Positions 15,942 to 33,220 of a stretch of 64,000 bases of DNA are shown here, piece after piece; position 1 is the stretch's first letter; every line of letters begins with the position of its first letter. The DNA is taken from the IMG/VR virus record IMGVR_UViG_3300027804_000039, positions 32,001 through 96,000 of that record, one strand, 5' to 3'. Source of the stretch: a virus. A program made the translations under genes and the position numbers. Below the pieces are notes generated by a model. The model made no database searches. It saw only the letters and a program-made list of their open reading frames with translations, and was not told where the DNA came from.

Positions 15942-16059
15942 GTCATTCTCCTTAAAAAACAAATTATATATTCATTTCAAATTCTTGTCAATGAACATAA
16001 TCAGTACTACGAGTAAAAGTAAAACAGCCACCGCCCCATGATTGTTCTCCTTAAAAAAA

Positions 16060-16128: not shown

Positions 16129-16204
16129 TGGTGCCGCCTCGTGGGATCGAACCACGTTCCGACGCTCTTCAGGCGCCTGCTATGACCACATCAGCTAAAG
16201 CGGC
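16129..16204 (-). tRNA. tRNA-Phe(GAA)
   Basis: Loop CU-GAA-GA. Confidence 0.9.
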
Positions 16205-16365
16205 AAATAGATTGGGTGCCTAACTATCCTCCTGGGAAGACTCGCTAGATTGTCTCGAATAGTCAAGTTTAACATACCGGCTTCAGTCATACTGTAGTGT
16301 CACCACAGTTAACCCCACTGTGGCTAGACTGGCAGGGACTCTAAACTATCGTCTATCCCAAAACT

Positions 16366-16440
16366 TGGTGCTCCGTGACGGACTCGAACCGCCATCGCCG
16401 GACTACAAAACCGGAATTCTAGCCTTTGAAATAACAGAGC
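16366..16440 (-). tRNA. Atypical tRNA, probably Thr(UGU) second copy
   Basis: CCGGU-UU-UGU-AG-UCCGG with U31:U39 mismatch. Confidence 0.65.
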
Positions 16441-16445
16441 AAAAT

Positions 16446-16523
16446 TGGTCTCCATGGTAGGATTCGAACCTACAGCCTCCTGACTCCAGATCAGGCCGTC
16501 TACCAGATTGACATTACACAGAG
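16446..16523 (-). tRNA. tRNA-Pro(UGG) second copy, non-canonical loop
   Basis: CCUGA-UC-UGG-AG-UCAGG (C33, A37). Confidence 0.8.
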
Positions 16524-16529
16524 ATAACT

Positions 16530-16604
16530 TGGTGGAGACCGAGGGAATCGAACCCTTCTAGACATCTTCCTTGCAAGGGAAGACCGTAGCCCACTACTGC
16601 CCCC
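16530..16604 (-). tRNA. Atypical tRNA-Ala(UGC) with miniature D arm
   Basis: G3:U70, D arm GUAG-UGGG-CUAC, loop CU-UGC-AA. Confidence 0.7.
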
Positions 16605-16614
16605 AAATTCTTTT

Positions 16615-16692
16615 TGGCACCCCAGGAAGGACTCGAACCTCCGACTCCCACGTTCGTAGCGTAGTACTCTTATTCCTCTGAGTTACTGGGGT
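16615..16692 (-). tRNA. tRNA-Arg(ACG)
   Basis: Loop CU-ACG-AA. Confidence 0.92.
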
Positions 16693-16698
16693 ATAAAT

Positions 16699-16776
16699 TG
16701 GAGTAGGGAGTCGGATTCGAACCGACGGCTTTAGAGTTTTGCAGACTCTTGCATTGGGCCTCTCTGCCATCCCTAC
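16699..16776 (-). tRNA. tRNA-Cys(GCA)
   Basis: Loop CU-GCA-AA, U73. Confidence 0.92.
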
Positions 16777-16783
16777 ATAATAT

Positions 16784-16858
16784 TGGCGCCGTAGACGAGA
16801 ATCGAACTCGCCTTAGTCGGATAGACAATCCGTTGCCCTCCCAGAGAACTACTACGGC
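16784..16858 (-). tRNA. tRNA-Asp(GUC) second copy, U37
   Basis: Loop UU-GUC-UA, G73. Confidence 0.78.
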
Positions 16859-16862
16859 ATGT

Positions 16863-16936
16863 TGGTATCGCGTACGGGGATCGAACCCGCCTGATCAGGT
16901 TGAAAGCCTGAGGACCTCCCAGAAGTCTAACGCGAT
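16863..16936 (-). tRNA. tRNA-Glu(UUC) second copy
   Basis: Loop CU-UUC-AA. Confidence 0.88.
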
Positions 16937-16945
16937 ATAAAAAAA

Positions 16946-17005
16946 CAGGATACATTTTCTTTTTTCACCAATTGAAAGTTGAATAAAGTTTGCTGTGAGT
17001 ATCCT
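16946..17005 (-). ncRNA. CAGCAA-stem RNA copy I carrying a Glu(UUC)-like anticodon stem-loop
   Basis: AGGAUAC-UCA-CAGCAA...UCAA-CUUUCAA-UUGG...GUAUCCU-G. Confidence 0.78.
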
Positions 17006-17011
17006 TAAACT

Positions 17012-17085
17012 TGGCAGGGGCATTAGGGATCGAACCTAAACTAACAGAGTCAAAGTCTGTTGTGCTACCATTACACAATGCCCCA
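17012..17085 (-). tRNA. tRNA-Gln(UUG)
   Basis: Loop CU-UUG-AC, U1-A72. Confidence 0.92.
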
Positions 17086-17091
17086 ACAAAT

Positions 17092-17169
17092 TGGCTGTGC
17101 GTCTAGGAATCGAACCCAGCTCATTCTTCGTTAACAGCGAAGCGCCTACACCTTGCTTGCTCACGCACA
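17092..17169 (-). tRNA. tRNA-Asn(GUU) second copy
   Basis: Loop CU-GUU-AA. Confidence 0.88.
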
Positions 17170-17176
17170 ATAAATT

Positions 17177-17250
17177 TGGTTCCCAGAACAAGAATCGAAC
17201 TTGTAATGACCGGTTATCAGCCGATTGTTATACCATTTAACTATCCGGGA
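17177..17250 (-). tRNA. tRNA-Ile(GAU)
   Basis: Loop CU-GAU-AA. Confidence 0.92.
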
Positions 17251-17255
17251 ATAAT

Positions 17256-17344
17256 TGGTGGAGCCTGAAGGAATCGAACCTAATTGCCAACCACCCTACA
17301 TATTAAGGCAACGGATTTACAGTCCGCCGTAGGGATCAAGCTCC
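17256..17344 (-). tRNA. Rearranged tRNA-Tyr(GUA) lacking a local D hairpin
   Basis: Acceptor GGAGCUU/AGGCUCC-ACCA, GCGGA-CUGUAAA-UCCGU, D region CCCUAC complementary to GUAGGG in the variable loop. Confidence 0.7.
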
Positions 17345-17557
17345 AAAATTTTCACACACTCTTTAGAATGTGTCGTATAAAATAAGCTAGTTCATCCCGT
17401 CAAGGGGGAAACGTTATACGATTCCTAACTTGCTTTATACGCTACCTTTTTACACATTCTAGTTATCGCCTAGAACTTACCATCCGGTAGGCCGCCCACA
17501 TTAAGCCGATGTTTTAAGTGCCAGCAGGGTCGCGTTCCCTATACACACTTTTTGCGA

Positions 17558-17722
17558 TTATTCGTGCTCTACGAGCTCGTCTTTTCGCTTGTGAAATGCT
17601 TCATAATAAGCCTTTGCACGTATAAACTTATTTTCAATAAGCCTTTCGAGCTCATCTTCACTAAGTTCATGCCTGGCTAAAAATTCAGCATCTCTTTGTT
17701 TTCTAAAATCTAAAGTTTCCAT
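17558..17722 (-). CDS. Small hypothetical protein (54 aa, not in ORF track)
   Basis: METLDFRKQRDAEFLARHE... Confidence 0.55.
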   Translation of the reverse strand: METLDFRKQRDAEFLARHELSEDELERLIENKFIRAKAYYEAFHKRKDELVEHE

Positions 17723-17738
17723 TTCAAATCCTACAAAA

Positions 17739-17767
17739 CAAAAAACCCTGGGTGTTTAGTCCAGGGT
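17739..17767 (-). terminator. Conditional intrinsic terminator (attenuator) upstream of tRNA array
   Basis: ACCCUGG-ACUAAACAC-CCAGGGU-UUUUUG; 5' arm also complementary to AGGGUCCUU in the leader ORF. Confidence 0.85.
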
Positions 17768-17795
17768 CCTTTTAAAGTTTGAGTGTTAGTTTATG

Positions 17796-17954
17796 TTAAC
17801 TTACACTATCCTCCAAGGACCCTACGGTAATCTCAGGTGTACGATCATTACCTAGACTGCCGGTACTAAACTGTGACCAATAGGCAGACATACATGCCGG
17901 CACTTTGGCTACTTGTTTAGATATCAGTTGTCTATGTAAACTGTTCGTTTTCAT
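17796..17954 (-). CDS. Putative attenuator leader peptide (52 aa, all 20 amino acids)
   Basis: MKTNSLHRQLISKQVAKVPACMSAYWSQFSTGSLGNDRTPEITVGSLEDSVS; lies between promoter and terminator. Confidence 0.7.
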   Translation of the reverse strand: MKTNSLHRQLISKQVAKVPACMSAYWSQFSTGSLGNDRTPEITVGSLEDSVS

Positions 17955-18010
17955 TTTTTGTTTCTCTTCATTACCTTAAAAAATTGTAGCGGAATTGCTA
18001 CTGTTTCGTT

Positions 18011-18039
18011 ATTGTAACGTCTTTCAACGCTACTGTCAA
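18011..18039 (-). promoter_or_regulatory. sigma70 promoter for leader and tRNA array (second tandem promoter at 18111-18139)
   Basis: TTGACA-17-TACAAT, present twice. Confidence 0.85.
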
Positions 18040-18246
18040 CAACTTTTTGAAATATTTTTTGTTGTATTTTTACAACAGTTGCTACTTCACTAACTTGCTG
18101 ACTGAACCTTATTGTATAGTTATTTAGTCTCTGTGTCAACCTCTATTTGCATTTTTGAGCAAAAAAGATTCACCAACTATCTAACTAGTCTCGATTGTAT
18201 AGTATATATGCCTATGTGTCAAGACCGGTACGGAAATGTTGTTTTT

Positions 18247-18603
18247 TTACGACATTTGACTGTCTCCGGGCAGAACACGATAGTTGTCCTCTGCAGAGTC
18301 TGCTGTACTTACTTCTATTATAGTACCTTCTTCAAAACAAATCAACTGGTGCGGACTCATTGGAGGGTTGTGCCACACATCACCTGCTTTGAGTTCTTGT
18401 ATAGACTGCTGTGCGTTTTTGGTATTGATGAATCTCAATTCAAATCGTCCGCTTAACACGTACCAAGTTTCATCCTTGTCCTTGTGAAAGTGCATACTAA
18501 ATCTTGCACCAGCTTTGAAGTTTAAGAATTTACCACAGTACTTGTCTGTGTTTGCCCATATAACTTCTTCGCCCCATCCTTTTGGTACATGTCCTGTTTT
18601 CAT
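18247..18603 (-). CDS. Cupin-domain protein (sugar isomerase-like)
   Basis: KGWGEE, HFH..K.ETWYVLSG, H..P..PHQL cupin motifs. Confidence 0.8.
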   Translation of the reverse strand: MKTGHVPKGWGEEVIWANTDKYCGKFLNFKAGARFSMHFHKDKDETWYVLSGRFELRFINTKNAQQSIQELKAGDVWHNPPMSPHQLICFEEGTIIEVSTADSAEDNYRVLPGDSQMS

Positions 18604-19358
18604 CGTATTTCCTCTAGTCTAGGAGCATAGCATCCTAGGTGTTGTACTGTTACTGCGGCAGCTCGGTTGGCAAATTCTATGGCTACTTTTATGTCCTTTG
18701 TTTCCAAGTACATGTAGGTCAGTGCTGATAAAAATGTGTCGCCTGCTCCTGTCACATCAATAACTTCTACTCTTGGAGCAGACGACTTAAACTCGTGATG
18801 CTTTGCTTCAGCACCATTTGCTCCTAGTGTAACAATAAGTCCCGAGCATTCTGAAGTAATTTTACTGTATTCTACTTCGTTTATCTTAACCCAAGCGCCT
18901 TGAAATCTTTCCAAGTTAGTTTTTTTAGTGTCTACAAATACAGGAACACGACTTTCGATAGCCTGTTCTATTAGTTCATAGGTAACAGTTCCTTTACCGT
19001 AGTCAGCAACAACAATAGCATCATAGTCCTTGAACATATCAGCTGTCATTAATAGTGGAACGCTGTGTGCATCTTCGTCTACCCTAAGGACTTGTTGTTT
19101 GCTACGACTGTCAATAAATCTAGTTTTTCTACTTATTTCGCCTGTTTTTAGTGTTACACTACAGCCCAGTGCTATCAAGTTGTTAAACACATTACCAACC
19201 ATGCCTGGCTTTCCAATGGACTGTGTTGGGCTAAAAACTGGTACAGGTGCTTCTGGGCTAATCCTGTCTACCGTTCCAAATTGATAAACATCAAGTCCGT
19301 TGTCGCCTATCAATAATATGTTGTATTGTTTTGGTTGTTGAATGTTCTGTTCTGTCAT
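18600..19358 (-). CDS. HldE/RfaE kinase domain (PfkB family heptose-7-P kinase)
   Basis: RISPEAPVP, DYGKG, DVTGAGDTF. Confidence 0.88.
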   Translation of the reverse strand: MTEQNIQQPKQYNILLIGDNGLDVYQFGTVDRISPEAPVPVFSPTQSIGKPGMVGNVFNNLIALGCSVTLKTGEISRKTRFIDSRSKQQVLRVDEDAHSVPLLMTADMFKDYDAIVVADYGKGTVTYELIEQAIESRVPVFVDTKKTNLERFQGAWVKINEVEYSKITSECSGLIVTLGANGAEAKHHEFKSSAPRVEVIDVTGAGDTFLSALTYMYLETKDIKVAIEFANRAAAVTVQHLGCYAPRLEEIR

Positions 19359-19692
19359 AATAAATTACTTTCTGGCAATAAGTTTCTCCGATGACACTTT
19401 TGCCTCGATAATCACTACCTTTTACCATTGTACAGCCTTTAACGATTTCAATCAATTCTTCCGGTGAATTGAAAAGTTCTACTCGATCAACCGCCTTGAG
19501 ATTTTCCAAAAATAATTTTCTATCATTTTGGTTATTGATTGGGCGATCAGGGCCCTTGAGCTGTTGGACACGTTCGTCCGTGTCTATTGCTACAATAAGA
19601 AAATCCCCGAGCGATCTAGCATAGTTTAACAACGCCAAATGCCCAGGGTGTAATATATCAAAAGTTCCGTTGACTACTATTTTCTTCATCAA
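19291..19692 (-). CDS. HldE/RfaE adenylyltransferase domain
   Basis: NGTFDILHPGH, KGPDRPIN, VKGSDY. Confidence 0.9.
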   Translation of the reverse strand: MMKKIVVNGTFDILHPGHLALLNYARSLGDFLIVAIDTDERVQQLKGPDRPINNQNDRKLFLENLKAVDRVELFNSPEELIEIVKGCTMVKGSDYRGKSVIGETYCQKVIYYDRTEHSTTKTIQHIIDRRQRT

Positions 19693-19705
19693 CTATTTAC
19701 GGCTA

Positions 19706-19777
19706 TTATCGATTCATCACGTACATTGTGATTTCGAATCCATAGCGCATTTCAACTGCTTCTGGTTTGGTCCACAT
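19706..19777 (-). CDS. pqqA: Pyrroloquinoline quinone precursor peptide (23 aa, not in ORF track)
   Basis: MWTKPEAVEMRYGFEITMYVMNR with W..P and the E-x-x-x-Y motif; SD AAGGAG. Confidence 0.9.
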   Translation of the reverse strand: MWTKPEAVEMRYGFEITMYVMNR

Positions 19778-19895
19778 AGTATTTCTCCTTTGATTAACAA
19801 ATTAACATACTGTCTGTGTAACTGTATGTATCTGTATTGTACAGGAGAAATACCCTGTTTCACATACTGAAAATCATTAATCTTGTATCACAAAA

Positions 19896-20402
19896 TTAAC
19901 TATTCAAAACCTTAGCCACTGCATTCATTACTGAGGCAATACGACCAATGTCACGAAGTTGTTCTACTGTGTAGCCTTCCTTCTTGAGTGTGTCGTAGTG
20001 TGCCTTAACACAGAAATGGCACTTGCCAACAATACTTGCGGCAAGACTGAACGCTTCAAAGTTTGCCTTTGTAGTTCCACCATGACTAGCAATAGCGTTC
20101 ATGCGTAACTGTGCTGGCAATCCTTTTAGTTGTTCATCATCAGCCATTTCAATATACGGATACCATACATTGTTCTGTGCCATGATGCTTGCGGCACACA
20201 TAGCTGACTCTGCGTGTACTGGAGCATCGGCTAACATAACAGCCAATACCTTACCGTTACCAGTTGCGGCCAGTGCGGCTACAGCACAACCCATAGCCAC
20301 ATCTGCATCCAATGTGCTACGCAAAAGGACAGCGTCCAAGTTTAACTTAGTGTCCTTTGCGTATTCTGGCAACGCTTCTTTAATCGATTCAATAAAACTC
20401 AT
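19896..20402 (-). CDS. ahpD: Alkyl hydroperoxide reductase AhpD
   Basis: PEYAKDTKLNL, NNVWY, CHFCVKAH. Confidence 0.9.
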   Translation of the reverse strand: MSFIESIKEALPEYAKDTKLNLDAVLLRSTLDADVAMGCAVAALAATGNGKVLAVMLADAPVHAESAMCAASIMAQNNVWYPYIEMADDEQLKGLPAQLRMNAIASHGGTTKANFEAFSLAASIVGKCHFCVKAHYDTLKKEGYTVEQLRDIGRIASVMNAVAKVLNS

Positions 20403-20599
20403 TTTCGTCCCCATTTAATATTTGCCCAAAGTCTATCATACAAATAGTATGACGTCATCCAGACACAATTTATAACGATAGTAGGAACAAGGGCCTGTGT
20501 TAGACTTTGTCCTGTTATTAACAACATCACATAGGTTGAGCATATGACCCAAATTCTATAGATGATAGTCTTGACTAAGGTCCTTGTCCTAGTTTCCAT
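20399..20599 (-). CDS. DUF2061-like small membrane protein
   Basis: E..RTLVKT..YR...YY.YDRLW..I.WG. Confidence 0.7.
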   Translation of the reverse strand: METRTRTLVKTIIYRIWVICSTYVMLLITGQSLTQALVPTIVINCVWMTSYYLYDRLWANIKWGRK

Positions 20600-21132
20600 T
20601 AAAGTGTTTCGCCGCCTACTGAACGATTACAAGCACATAGCTCGCCAGTTTGTAGAGCATCTAAAACACGAAGTGTTTCTTCTGGACTACGACCGACGTT
20701 CAAGTTATTGACAGTAACGTGTTGAATAACGCCTTCTGGATCAACAATAAATGTTGCGCGAAGTGCTGCACCTGCTGGAGCATAGAATACACCAAGCTGA
20801 TTAATCAGGCTGAGATCACCACGTTGTGTGTCTGCAAATTGTGTATGTGTAATCTTAGCAAGATCAGGATGAGCTTTTTGCCATGCAAGTTTACAGAACT
20901 CGTTGTCTGTAGAGCCTGTTAGCAAAACAGCATCACGGTCTTTGAAATCATTTGCCAACTTGTCATAGGCAACGATTTCAGTTGGACATACGAATGTGAA
21001 GTCCTTTGGGTAATATACAATCACTTTCCACTTGCCTGCGAAAGATTCGTCAGTAATGTCAAAGAATTGATCACTACCTGGGTTAACGCCTGTTACGGCA
21101 AACTTTTCAATTTTATCACCAACTGTTTTCAT
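20599..21132 (-). CDS. ahpC: Peroxiredoxin AhpC
   Basis: YPKDFTFVCPTE, GELCACN. Confidence 0.95.
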   Translation of the reverse strand: MKTVGDKIEKFAVTGVNPGSDQFFDITDESFAGKWKVIVYYPKDFTFVCPTEIVAYDKLANDFKDRDAVLLTGSTDNEFCKLAWQKAHPDLAKITHTQFADTQRGDLSLINQLGVFYAPAGAALRATFIVDPEGVIQHVTVNNLNVGRSPEETLRVLDALQTGELCACNRSVGGETL

Positions 21133-26840: not shown

Positions 26841-26916
26841 TGGTGCGCTGAGTGGGAATCGAACCCACGCATCTGGAGTTTTAGAGGCTCCCGCTGTTCC
26901 ATTTAGCTATCAGCGC
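26841..26916 (-). tRNA. Amber-suppressor-type tRNA (CUA anticodon)
   Basis: GCGCUGA/UCAGCGC-ACCA; GGAGC-CU-CUA-AA-ACUCC; own promoter TTGACG-17-TATAAT at 26925-26953. Confidence 0.82.
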
Positions 26917-27428: not shown

Positions 27429-27546
27429 ACTAAATTTTTCCTTATGTGTTTCACTGTGTGTGATGTCTTTCTATATATCTACGAAAAACACACAGCTTAG
27501 AGTATTATATATTCACGTAAACCATGAGAGCAAATTTTTTTACTCC

Positions 27547-27574
27547 AAAAAAATAGCACCCGAAGGTGCTATTT
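27547..27574 (-). terminator. Terminator after tmRNA
   Basis: aaatagcacc-cgaa-ggtgctattt plus U-tract. Confidence 0.8.
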
Positions 27575-27925
27575 GTTATTTTGGGTGACAAGGTATAACT
27601 ACCCCGGTTCCGCTGTTTCTTAGGCAGCTAAAGCAAACTTGCTGTCGTTGACAGCTACGTCTACTTCGTAGAACTTAAATGCTGATTTTGCATTTATAAG
27701 TTTTGCTTGATTTACGGTCATCGCCTACCGTGTTGCCGTCTCTACTATCTACCCCTGTCGAAACCATGGCAGGCCCATCATAAAATGACTAGGAAAACTA
27801 TAGCAACTGCGATAAATCCAACTAGTGTACTATATCCAGTGTCCATACTAATCTCCTTATGGTGGACCTGGCGGGAGTCGAACCCGCGTCCAGAAGTCCT
27901 TCGCTTTGAAGGGATTACAACAATT
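27575..27925 (-). ncRNA. ssrA: Two-piece (circularly permuted) tmRNA
   Basis: Acceptor piece ends GCGGGUUCGACUCCCGC-CAGGUCC-ACCA (27860); coding piece starts GGGCCUG (27776), giving G3:U70; tag ORF 27620-27691 AKSAFKFYEVDVAVNDSKFALAA. Confidence 0.92.
27778..27846 (-). CDS. 22-aa hydrophobic peptide inside the tmRNA intervening segment
   Basis: UAAGGAG SD; MDTGYSTLVGFIAVAIVFLVIL. Confidence 0.6.
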   Translation of the reverse strand: MDTGYSTLVGFIAVAIVFLVIL

Positions 27926-27927
27926 CT

Positions 27928-28011
27928 TTACTTACTATTGCGTCTTCTAGTAGCTTTAGCTCTAGAAGCTGCTTTCGTACGTGCCGCACGGGCTCTTACT
28001 AATCTTCCCAT
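27928..28011 (-). CDS. 27-aa Arg/Ala-rich basic peptide
   Basis: MGRLVRARAARTKAASRAKATRRRNSK. Confidence 0.5.
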   Translation of the reverse strand: MGRLVRARAARTKAASRAKATRRRNSK

Positions 28012-31211: not shown

Positions 31212-33220
31212 TTATCTGGTAAGTCTTGTTGCTTCATGAACTCACAACGTTCAATCCAGATTTTGTAGTACTTGTCCATTTGTCCACCAAAAGTTCCTTT
31301 TAGCTCTCCACATAGAATTGCGGCTGCATCAAATTGTTTGGCTCGATACAATTCTTGCATTGTATTGTAACGCTTTAAGTCTCCTGACCAATCGGCACCG
31401 TTAGGACGCAATGCTGTATAGATTAAGTCTGCTACAGACTTTCCTTTTGGTTGTAAGTTGTCAATGCACAAGTAGAAGAAATCGTCTTTAGTTCTGTTGT
31501 ATGTTTCAGCACCAATGATACATAATACACCGTATGCTTTACAACGTGCTTCTAGTCGCGCGGCTGTTGAAACCATATCACCTAATATGTCATAACTATG
31601 TCTATCAGTGCTTCCCATTTCGCCAATAAAGCCAATACCTGTATTACAACCCCAACCCATTGCAGCCGGTGGTAAACCCTGTGCTTCCATTTCTTTTGTG
31701 TAAGCATCAACAGCATCTAACATCTGTAAACCAACAGCAACAATAGTACGAGCATGATTAGGATCTTCAATAGGAGCACCATGTATGTGCATACTTGCAT
31801 CGCCTACGTACTTAATAACCATACCCTTGTTGTCCATGATAGGACGACTAATAGCATCCATATAGCCGTTCATATACTTGCCTAATCCGGCAACGTCATC
31901 TCCGTAGTGTTCACCGATTGGTGTAAATCCACGTAAGTCACTAAACATAACTGACACATCTTTTCTTACACCACGCTTAATTAAATCTGGGTCTTTCTGT
32001 AACATCTCTACTACTTCTTTAGAGCAGTATCCAGCAAACTGTTTCTTGATTGCTTGTTTCTGTAAGAACTCACTTACAAACTTAACACCGTAAGTATGCA
32101 AAGCGACAAGAACAAGACCAGCCGTGCTTGCCGTCGCGTCTCCCAAGATTCTGAATTCACTGAAACCATAGCGACTAGCAACAACACAGGCAATGACCCC
32201 AGTAATAGTTGTAATAATACCGACATAGGTCCACCTCGACATTCCAATAATAATCAAACCTAATACTAATAATGTTAGTATTTCCGCTCCATCGGCCCAA
32301 TCAGGACGTTGAATTACTACTCCGTTAACCATAGTACCAATGACTGCTGCTTGTACTTCGTGTGGCCATACTGCACCTTTGGCAGTTGGCAGTGGATTGC
32401 TAATACCCGCAGCACTTGGTCCTACGATGACAATAGCACCTTCTAAATCTTTTGGTAATTGTGTTAAACTGAAACTGCGTGACTGCTGACTCCAGTCAAT
32501 CCAAATACGTCCTAAGTTGTCTGTTGTAACTGGACCAAATTTAGGTATACGCATCTTTTCTACACCACCTTCAAACAGTTTAACTTGGAAGGTAGAATCG
32601 CCTGCTGCAACTCTGAGTGTCTCCATAGCTATGCTAGGATAAAGTTTACCGTCAACTCCTACAATCAACGGTAAACGGCGATTCACACCGTCCACCTCTG
32701 GGAGTGTGTTTGTTATTCCAATGCCTGCAGCATTGTTTTCTAATATTGGAACGTTTGCTATAAGTCCAGGATACTGTACAATTTGATCCATGAACTCTGG
32801 ATTAAGAACTGCCGATCCTGGAACACGTGGATCATTCTTTGTCTTTTGTGCAGGTGTGCTTGATAAAACTACAGGAAACTCTTTTAGAGCTTGACCCAGC
32901 GCACGGTCTCCACCTGTACGGTCTGGTTCTGGCATGAGTACATTAAGTACAACAAGTCCTGCTCCCCTCTGATATAAATCTCGTACAATTTTGGCATATT
33001 CTGCTCTTGGTAGCGGCCACTGTCCATGTTTGTTTAAACTATCTTCATCAATATTTACAGTTACAATGTTATTAAATGTAGGTTCTTTGGCAGTAATTAA
33101 TGTGTCAAAATAACGTAGCCTAACACTTTCAACGAATGTAGGATCTGCAACACGTATGCCCACTACTAATGCTAAAGTCAGTAGAGCAGTCCAAGGGCTG
33201 AGTAATATTTTTTTCATCAT
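31178..33220 (-). CDS. CHASE2-domain class III adenylate/guanylate cyclase
   Basis: CHASE2 (VNIDEDSL..HGQWPLPR, DGVNRR), TM helices, FSDLRGFT, KYVGDA, YDILGDMVSTAARLE. Confidence 0.93.
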   Translation of the reverse strand: MMKKILLSPWTALLTLALVVGIRVADPTFVESVRLRYFDTLITAKEPTFNNIVTVNIDEDSLNKHGQWPLPRAEYAKIVRDLYQRGAGLVVLNVLMPEPDRTGGDRALGQALKEFPVVLSSTPAQKTKNDPRVPGSAVLNPEFMDQIVQYPGLIANVPILENNAAGIGITNTLPEVDGVNRRLPLIVGVDGKLYPSIAMETLRVAAGDSTFQVKLFEGGVEKMRIPKFGPVTTDNLGRIWIDWSQQSRSFSLTQLPKDLEGAIVIVGPSAAGISNPLPTAKGAVWPHEVQAAVIGTMVNGVVIQRPDWADGAEILTLLVLGLIIIGMSRWTYVGIITTITGVIACVVASRYGFSEFRILGDATASTAGLVLVALHTYGVKFVSEFLQKQAIKKQFAGYCSKEVVEMLQKDPDLIKRGVRKDVSVMFSDLRGFTPIGEHYGDDVAGLGKYMNGYMDAISRPIMDNKGMVIKYVGDASMHIHGAPIEDPNHARTIVAVGLQMLDAVDAYTKEMEAQGLPPAAMGWGCNTGIGFIGEMGSTDRHSYDILGDMVSTAARLEARCKAYGVLCIIGAETYNRTKDDFFYLCIDNLQPKGKSVADLIYTALRPNGADWSGDLKRYNTMQELYRAKQFDAAAILCGELKGTFGGQMDKYYKIWIERCEFMKQQDLPDNWNGEFVAHEK

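Follow-up and report, generated by a model that had tools for sequence, protein, structure and literature searches.

The leader-peptide attenuators of amino-acid operons (trp, his, leu, thr, pheA and ilv) and of pheST have in common a short open reading frame (ORF), translated in those systems, that lies between a promoter and an intrinsic terminator. We describe here an element with the same order of parts on the minus strand of a viral DNA of 64,000 nucleotides (nt), referred to below as the window, which covers positions 32,001 to 96,000 of the 191-kb IMG/VR virus record IMGVR_UViG_3300027804_000039 (CheckV completeness about 50%). As in the amino-acid operons, the antiterminator helix and the terminator share a strand, ribosome position would be expected to select between the two helices, and no consensus promoter precedes the first downstream gene. 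We propose, with a probability of roughly 0.6, that the element is an attenuator coupled to translation, with readthrough occurring whenever any amino acid is decoded slowly.

There are also several departures from the trp/his-type leaders. The element lacks a run of one regulatory codon and instead presents approximately one codon per amino acid, its stop codon is situated in the apex of the antiterminator, and its cargo is a small protein, a structured RNA and transfer RNA (tRNA) genes, all in an uncultured giant phage. Neither a 1:2 protector or pause hairpin nor a match to the Rfam leader families (Trp_leader, His_leader and others) was found. Judged from its sequence, the locus has the structure that defines a leader-peptide attenuator, whereas the features specific to the trp/his type (codon runs, matches to the Rfam models) are missing.

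Attenuators that respond to a general inhibition of translation are also known, including the bmrCD and vmlR leaders. The antibiotic-responsive leader of the Bacillus subtilis yxjB type is reported (PMC6851288) likewise to sense ribosomes that are generally slowed, with terminator readthrough as its output. Antibiotic-responsive leaders differ from the element described here in being short, in that drug-bound ribosomes stall on them at particular motifs, and in that resistance genes are induced. We know of none that is selected for a complete set of amino acids or that controls tRNA genes. In the pyrBI and pyrE leaders the distance between ribosome and polymerase decides whether the terminator folds and there is no regulatory codon run, as in the element, but the logic is opposite: a closely following ribosome blocks the terminator directly, and it is the speed of the polymerase (through uridine triphosphate) rather than that of decoding that is sensed. 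T-box riboswitches also report tRNA charging to a terminator/antiterminator switch, although they bind one specific uncharged tRNA directly and require no translation; the element contains no T-box sequence and has no Rfam T-box match. Of the described systems, the general-translation-inhibition leaders are the closest in logic and coupling attenuators like pyrBI, with opposite sign, in kinetics.

The promoter, ORF and terminator had been located in a first-pass annotation made from the letters alone, and all of these positions hold on the minus strand. The parts of the element are as follows, in window coordinates.

18011..18039, minus strand: leader-proximal promoter, TTGACA-17-TACAAT, from a consensus scan; 56 nt separate the end of the -10 box from the ATG
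17796..17954, minus strand: leader ORF, 52 codons plus UAA, with all 20 amino acids and 37 distinct codons
17832..17858, minus strand: codons 33-41 of the leader, S-L-G-N-D-R-T-P-E, the peptide-constrained block
17762..17824, minus strand: antiterminator hairpin of helices P1-P3 with the stop codon at the apical loop, from folding and covariation
17740..17767, minus strand: intrinsic terminator, ACCCUGG, 9-nt loop, CCAGGGU and U6, -11.3 kcal/mol

The end of the leader ORF and the terminator compete for one strand of RNA. The sequence AGGGUCCUU (17823-17815) is the exact complement of AAGGACCCU (17771-17763), as the first-pass annotation had recognized in pairing codons 44-47 with the terminator 5' arm, and folding recovers the inner pairs that it had drawn around the stop codon (GGAG/CUUU, AGUGU/ACACU and AGUU/AACU). 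The window hairpin comprises P1 (UAGGGUCCU / AGGACCCUG), P2 (UGGAG / CUUUA) and P3 (AGUGU-AGUU / AACU-ACACU); codons 44-52 supply its 5' strands and the UAA stop lies in its apex. Six of the seven bases in the 5' arm of the terminator double as the 3' strand of P1, and the two helices are mutually exclusive. The two states are nearly equal in energy (-25.7 kcal/mol for the antiterminator versus -24.8 kcal/mol), which is the balance expected for a switch, and a 10-bp pairing like that of the window is reached in 0.2% of shuffles.

Conservation across relatives, and not the single copy in the window, is what excludes a chance arrangement. A peptide-pattern scan of viral contigs identified 11 relatives, DNA-pattern scans (two of viral and one of metagenome contigs) extended the set to at least 28 distinct versions, and four distant members fetched by protein identity bring the total to at least 32 distinct DNA versions, on contigs that derive from lakes. 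A profile search of 1.84 billion representatives yielded 141 clusters, no two of them more than 50% identical, nearly all 41-55 amino acids (aa) long and none annotated. The ORF, of 41-55 codons in the DNA versions examined, has 46-54 codons in all 28 versions, each of which has the three-tier hairpin and a terminator 50-60 nt past the stop codon; that codon is UAA in 31 of 32 versions. In the four distant members the helices have quite different sequences, but every part of the layout (promoter, ORF, hairpin, terminator, tRNA context) is retained. tRNA genes lie after or around the element in all of the 16 relatives' loci scanned except the short L154, and in L008-L010 and L160 the element is located within the tRNA array. 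The element is thus a conserved module. It has no Rfam match at either gathering or permissive thresholds (E up to 10), the leader has no match in Pfam, PHROGs or the Protein Atlas and is labelled a hypothetical protein by gene callers, and GenBank phages offer no DNA or protein match to the element region, to a neighbouring gene of 1164 aa or to the 54-aa gene that follows the terminator.

The hairpin is conserved as a structure. Each version folded alone forms P1 at the base, then P2, and P3 at the apex, and in every version P1 pairs the ORF tail with the terminator 5' arm; there are at least six contiguous pairs to that arm in 30 of the 32 versions (median 8), and P1 takes a 12-bp form in L160. 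Compensatory variants of P1 include AGGGUCC/GGACCCU, GGGGUCC/GGACCCC, AGGGUUC/GAACCCU (which turns a Ser of the peptide into Phe), an inserted U-A pair and UUCGGG/CCCGGA, and the terminator 3' arm tracks these changes, such that three strands covary. P3 is represented by more than 10 unrelated sequences, all paired, and altogether at least 19 distinct hairpin sequence versions share one architecture. When 34 matches are aligned with a covariance model, 89.5% of the cells are paired and compensatory changes support 10 of 13 pairs. None of 500 shuffles reach these values, and slid controls pair at 22-63%; the alignment itself was fitted to the structure. Support that was not fitted comes from the per-sequence folds and from the MAFFT-based covariation of the terminator, in which RNAalifold finds six pairs with compensatory changes; the MAFFT alignment A2 places P1 in two registers and was left out of the pair counts.

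The leader frame is open in all versions (at least 32 at the DNA level and 141 protein clusters) despite many indels, and three zones can be distinguished within it: a fast-evolving N-terminal zone, with 19 synonymous and 35 non-synonymous changes, the peptide-constrained block, and an RNA-constrained tail. The N-D-R-T-P-E codons vary only at third positions (CGU/CGC, all four CCN, GAG/GAA), and across the nine-codon S-L-G-N-D-R-T-P-E block close pairs show 12 synonymous versus 2 non-synonymous changes, a bias that is partly built in, as the DNA search patterns admitted only synonymous variants there; D-R-T-P-E is, however, the invariant core in an independent protein profile search as well. 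Because close pairs differ in the tail by 11 non-synonymous versus 1 synonymous change, and because the string GGGGUCC is retained despite a one-base frame shift over it (L006 vs L008), the tail appears to evolve as RNA rather than as protein. Coding-type selection and conservation of the ORF imply that the leader is probably translated. A purely non-coding RNA was rejected as a reading, since 141 clusters maintain the open frame and only synonymous variation is seen in the central block.

The amino-acid composition of the leader is the property that sets it apart. A count bears out the annotated composition of the window peptide: 37 distinct codons encode the full set of 20 residues, of which C, H, F, W and Y occur a single time. 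In one copy alone this is a weak observation: 3-8% of random 46-54-aa windows of the phage's proteins (6% of 52-aa windows) contain all 20 residues, and the leader is the only one among 128 small ORFs of the genome to do so. Across relatives the observation is strong. All 20 residues occur in 25 of 27 distinct peptides from the DNA scans and in 55 of 57 close homologs. Tree simulations run forward from an observed leaf (reversible model, global or site-specific frequencies, scaled to the observed identity) leave on average 3.5-8.4 of 26 leaves with all 20 residues, with a maximum of 23, compared with 24 of 26 observed. Among the diverged representatives (clusters at most 50% identical, 120 usable), 86 (72%) have all 20 residues and 29 have 19, compared with 5.8 of 120 (maximum 15) when pooled residues are re-dealt and 24.7 +/- 4.1 of 120 (maximum 43, 3000 runs) when residues are shuffled within alignment columns, which keeps positional preferences. 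The full set is already reached within the approximately 38 residues up to D-R-T-P-E in 61 of the 120.

Individual residues behave in the same manner. Measured from the invariant Trp, Cys takes up 37 different positions, yet its count is exactly one in 84 of the 120 peptides (variance/mean of the count 0.34), and His behaves alike. An internal Met is present in 112 of 120 peptides, and in four cases where the usual one is lost (P0025, P0030, P0045 and P0052) there is another nearby. Completeness extends to codons, with 34-42 distinct codons per leader (ratio 0.75 in 28 leaders) against ratios of 0.62 for the genome's other small ORFs, about 0.59 for long genes and 0.68-0.71 for uniform codon use; both Arg and both Ser codon families are represented in all 28 leaders and both Leu families in 26. 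The comparison of codon diversity with shuffled ORFs and with relatives that the first-pass annotation had suggested therefore comes out with a diversity above that of a uniform draw and conserved. Its expectation that codon diversity rather than the peptide would be conserved holds for the diversity but not for the N-D-R-T-P-E block, which is kept as peptide. Likewise, of the codons it had listed as rare, ACG (6%) and CCG (12%) are so, whereas AGA (34%), AUA (26%) and CUA (18%) are common, each percentage being the share within its own amino acid in the phage. Taken together, the sequences indicate that selection maintains the completeness of the amino-acid set, including the internal Met and both the Arg and the Ser codon families.

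A side observation concerns the match between leaders and tRNAs. Three leaders without Cys (L162, L163 and L164), all on incomplete contigs, are accompanied by 36 tRNAs with no tRNA-Cys among them, while a tRNA-Cys is found next to Cys-containing leaders in 6 of 11 partial arrays and in the full array of the window. The composition of the leader may mirror the phage's own tRNA set, a hint that comes from incomplete contigs.

A plausible model for the element is as follows. Two or three very strong promoters would drive a leader ORF of about 50 codons, the last 9-10 of which form the 5' strands of P1-P3, and the 3' base strand of this hairpin is the terminator 5' arm. P1-P3 would be transcribed ahead of the terminator 3' arm and so would form first, making readthrough the default. 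If a fast ribosome is on the last codons or the UAA when the polymerase makes the terminator, P1-P3 would be melted, the terminator would fold and transcription would stop. A ribosome at the stop codon would have its footprint over P2, P3 and the edge of P1, such that P1 would need to close around the ribosome, whereas the terminator hairpin, 28-36 nt beyond, would be free to fold. A delay at any earlier codon would leave the hairpin intact and allow transcription into the small gene, the structured RNA and the tRNA array and, since one codon is kept for each of the 20 amino acids, a shortage of any charged tRNA could cause such a delay. There is a conserved GGAGG in P2, 8-13 nt before the stop codon, and we speculate that it could pair with the anti-Shine-Dalgarno sequence of the terminating ribosome and hold it.

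Translational control of the switch, the direction of its response and its trigger are what we infer for this model, and it is from geometry only that we take a stall to lead to readthrough. That anticodon nucleases provide the trigger is conjecture, and recent literature makes the idea attractive without bearing on the element. The odds are, in our view, about even that the completeness-selected leader and the switch act together as a single cis element that reports a shortage of any charged tRNA and turns on the tRNA array, the small protein and the structured RNA.

Several observations weigh against a translation-coupled attenuator that responds to any slow codon. About a quarter of family members are without one or more amino acids; Cys is missing from 18 leaders and Val from 8. 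In 25 of the 120 diverged peptides the twentieth residue, mostly Val, comes solely from the tail, where by geometry a stall should favour termination and not readthrough, and some versions (L008, for example) have Glu codons only where a stalled ribosome already covers P1. P1 has only five contiguous pairs in L010 and L156, and the formal count of conserved pairs comes from the structure-fitted alignment. A trp-like 1:2 protector or pause hairpin was considered, and RNAalifold finds none conserved in the 5' half of the leader; without a pause hairpin, the synchronization of ribosome and polymerase is unexplained by the model. Finally, a pure composition sensor would not predict the invariant N-D-R-T-P-E block, which suggests a peptide-specific role. 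The block may pause or arrest the ribosome at the edge of P1, or the peptide that contains it may have a function of its own.

The first of these possibilities leads to an alternative in which the attenuator is tuned by a specific nascent peptide, W...N-D-R-T-P-E, that arrests or pauses the ribosome, with the full set of amino acids being secondary. One factor or metabolite would park the ribosome on or before P1, as in TnaC, SecM and the antibiotic-sensing leaders. The block is indeed conserved as peptide with solely synonymous variation, it is the core of the family profile and it ends 0-2 codons short of P1, such that a ribosome held there would cover the 5' strand of the antiterminator. 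However, the distance from the block to the stop codon varies between 6 and 11 residues, and that from W to D is also variable, unlike the spacing in known arrest peptides. Moreover, a specific arrest peptide would leave unaccounted for the selection for the full residue set, the shifting positions of Cys, His and Met and the excess codon diversity. We know of no arrest motif that resembles the block, and we regard this explanation as unlikely.

What lies beyond the terminator bears on a second alternative. The features immediately downstream are these.

17558..17722, minus strand: gene for a helical protein of 54 aa, the first after the terminator
about 17345..17556, minus strand: structured RNA of about 210 nt, flanked by the small gene and the first tRNA gene
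16129..17344, minus strand: first tRNA block, with genes for a Tyr-like tRNA (17344-17256) and for Ile, Asn, Gln, Glu, Asp, Cys, Arg, Ala, Pro, Thr and Phe tRNAs

The first-pass annotation had the tRNA cluster directly after the terminator and the tRNAs as the switched output; this does not hold, as the 54-aa ORF, the structured RNA of about 210 nt and the tRNA-Tyr-like gene intervene, and the first products would be the small protein and the structured RNA. The small gene starts 17 nt past the U-tract in the window and 17-19 nt past it in relatives, which leaves no room for a promoter, and a scan that covered consensus sigma-70 sites found none within 700 nt past the terminator in 23 of 28 relatives and found such sites in the remaining 5. 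Because of this short distance and the lack of consensus promoters in the 23, we propose that readthrough is required for expression of the small protein, the structured RNA and the first tRNA block. The next perfect-consensus promoter after the first tRNA block in the window is at 15991.

One could instead suppose that the leader is an ordinary small phage protein gene followed by an ordinary intrinsic terminator, that the hairpin serves the stability of the mRNA 3' end or translation termination, and that unrecognized promoters drive the downstream genes. Such a view would fit a peptide family that is widespread and partly conserved in sequence, the hypothetical-protein label of the gene callers, and the five relatives with consensus-type promoters no more than 700 nt downstream. 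It would not fit the short space behind the U-tract or the complementarity between P1 and the terminator arm, kept by several types of compensatory change and needless for a simple terminator. The C-terminal codons are, in addition, under RNA and not protein constraint, and a folded microprotein gives no cause for compositional completeness with mobile Cys and His. We therefore consider an ordinary gene improbable. Less probable still is a hairpin that acts mainly at the RNA level, as an RNase III-type site splitting the leader from the tRNA precursor or within a trans-acting leader RNA or peptide (as for rnTrpL and peTrpL). In its favour, an interrupted hairpin of about 25 bp heads the tRNA precursor, the terminated leader would be plentiful given the very strong tandem promoters, and dual-function attenuator RNAs provide a precedent (PMC7968998). 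Against it, processing requires neither overlap with the terminator arm nor a balanced alternative fold, and the ORF and its composition are unaccounted for; no target turned up, no search aimed at one having been made, and such a role could coexist with attenuation instead of replacing it.

If the translation-coupled attenuator is real, it would be the first regulatory element by which decoding itself governs whether a tRNA array is expressed. The reasons for large phage tRNA sets, and how these are controlled, are still debated; the ideas put forward include codon compensation, the replacement of host tRNAs that decay and escape from defences that cleave tRNAs (PMC10264068, PMC11555353, PMC11464382). 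Such ideas would become directly testable, and the element would act as a feedback governor on the capacity for viral translation, for instance as host tRNAs are lost to decay or cleavage during infection. It would also represent a new design principle for attenuators and potentially a compact natural reporter of global aminoacyl-tRNA supply, within a large family (141 clusters at 50% identity) that is wholly unannotated. We know of no other leader peptide with one of everything as a conserved property, and our literature search yielded no report of a pan-amino-acid leader or of a phage tRNA array under attenuation control.

The small protein recurs with the element. Homologous ORFs of 52-60 aa at the same spacing are present in 12 of 14 relatives examined and in distant members; among the relatives checked only L012 has no counterpart, and the flank of L113 is too short to tell. 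These proteins share the motif H-x-L-[ST]-x-[DE]...[KR]-L-I-x-x-K-[FL]-x-R-A, and the 54-aa protein has no Pfam, PHROG or Protein Atlas assignment. This protein could be the principal product under control, or a partner of the switch.

The structured RNA has conserved motifs in 14 relatives, the invariant ones being GGAACG, GCACUUAAAACAU, GGGCGGCC...GGAUG and AGCGUAUUAAAG, and 13 of 17 RNAalifold pairs show compensatory changes, for example CUACC/GGUAG to CUAGG/CCUAG. Its positions in four of the relatives are as follows.

L002:3401-3615: structured RNA
L074:5361-5575: structured RNA
L156:595-830: structured RNA
L158:2690-2930: structured RNA

It has no Rfam match and appears to represent a family of RNAs, so far undescribed, that is associated with phage tRNA arrays. 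The tRNA-Tyr-like gene that follows it in the window (17256-17344, minus strand) was missed by ARAGORN and gives only a weak tRNA-Sec-type match in Rfam (28.6 bits), while a normal tRNA-Tyr takes its place in L158, L160 and L164, either after the structured RNA or, in L164, after the small gene.

Upstream of the leader, the single promoter of the first-pass annotation is correct, but two further promoters of identical type (18222-18194 and 18139-18111) had been overlooked. The additional features are these.

18194..18222, minus strand: upstream tandem promoter 1, TTGACA-17-TACAAT, from a consensus scan, 11 of 12 matches
18111..18139, minus strand: upstream tandem promoter 2, TTGACA-17-TACAAT, from a consensus scan
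17978..18001, minus strand: hairpin in the 5' untranslated region (stem-loop 18001-17986), GUAGC/GCUAC with an AAUUCC loop, then AA and U6

The three TTGACA-17-TACAAT promoters of the window are thus in tandem, at distances of 83 and 100 nt, and the intervals contain no convincing ORF. Of 28 relatives, 27 have two or three tandem near-consensus sigma-70 promoters ahead of the leader and L088 has one; the tandem layout, kept in relatives, resembles the P1/P2 promoter stacking of ribosomal RNA genes. The distance from the end of the -10 box to the ATG is only 6-11 nt in several relatives (L007-L011, L033, L119 and L160), and their mRNA would therefore be leaderless or nearly so. The 5' hairpin is missing from these leaderless versions, and elsewhere its stem covaries (GUUAGG/CCUAAC, UACGCU/AGCGUA). 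The AAUUC-type loop of the hairpin is conserved and a U-run follows, which makes it terminator-like, yet weak.

Farther upstream of the promoters (18247-21132, minus strand) are host-like metabolic genes, for a cupin, a PfkB-type sugar kinase and a cytidylyltransferase-like protein, together with AhpD/AhpC-like ORFs, these last two named by eye from sequence. In the other direction, the tRNA array as called by ARAGORN starts at 17250 and has 37 tRNAs in the window, with a permuted transfer-messenger RNA (tmRNA) further on. One of the tRNAs (26841-26916, minus strand) carries the anticodon CUA and would decode amber (UAG). The permuted tmRNA is in two pieces (27529-27952, minus strand) and scores best against betaproteobacterial and permuted models.

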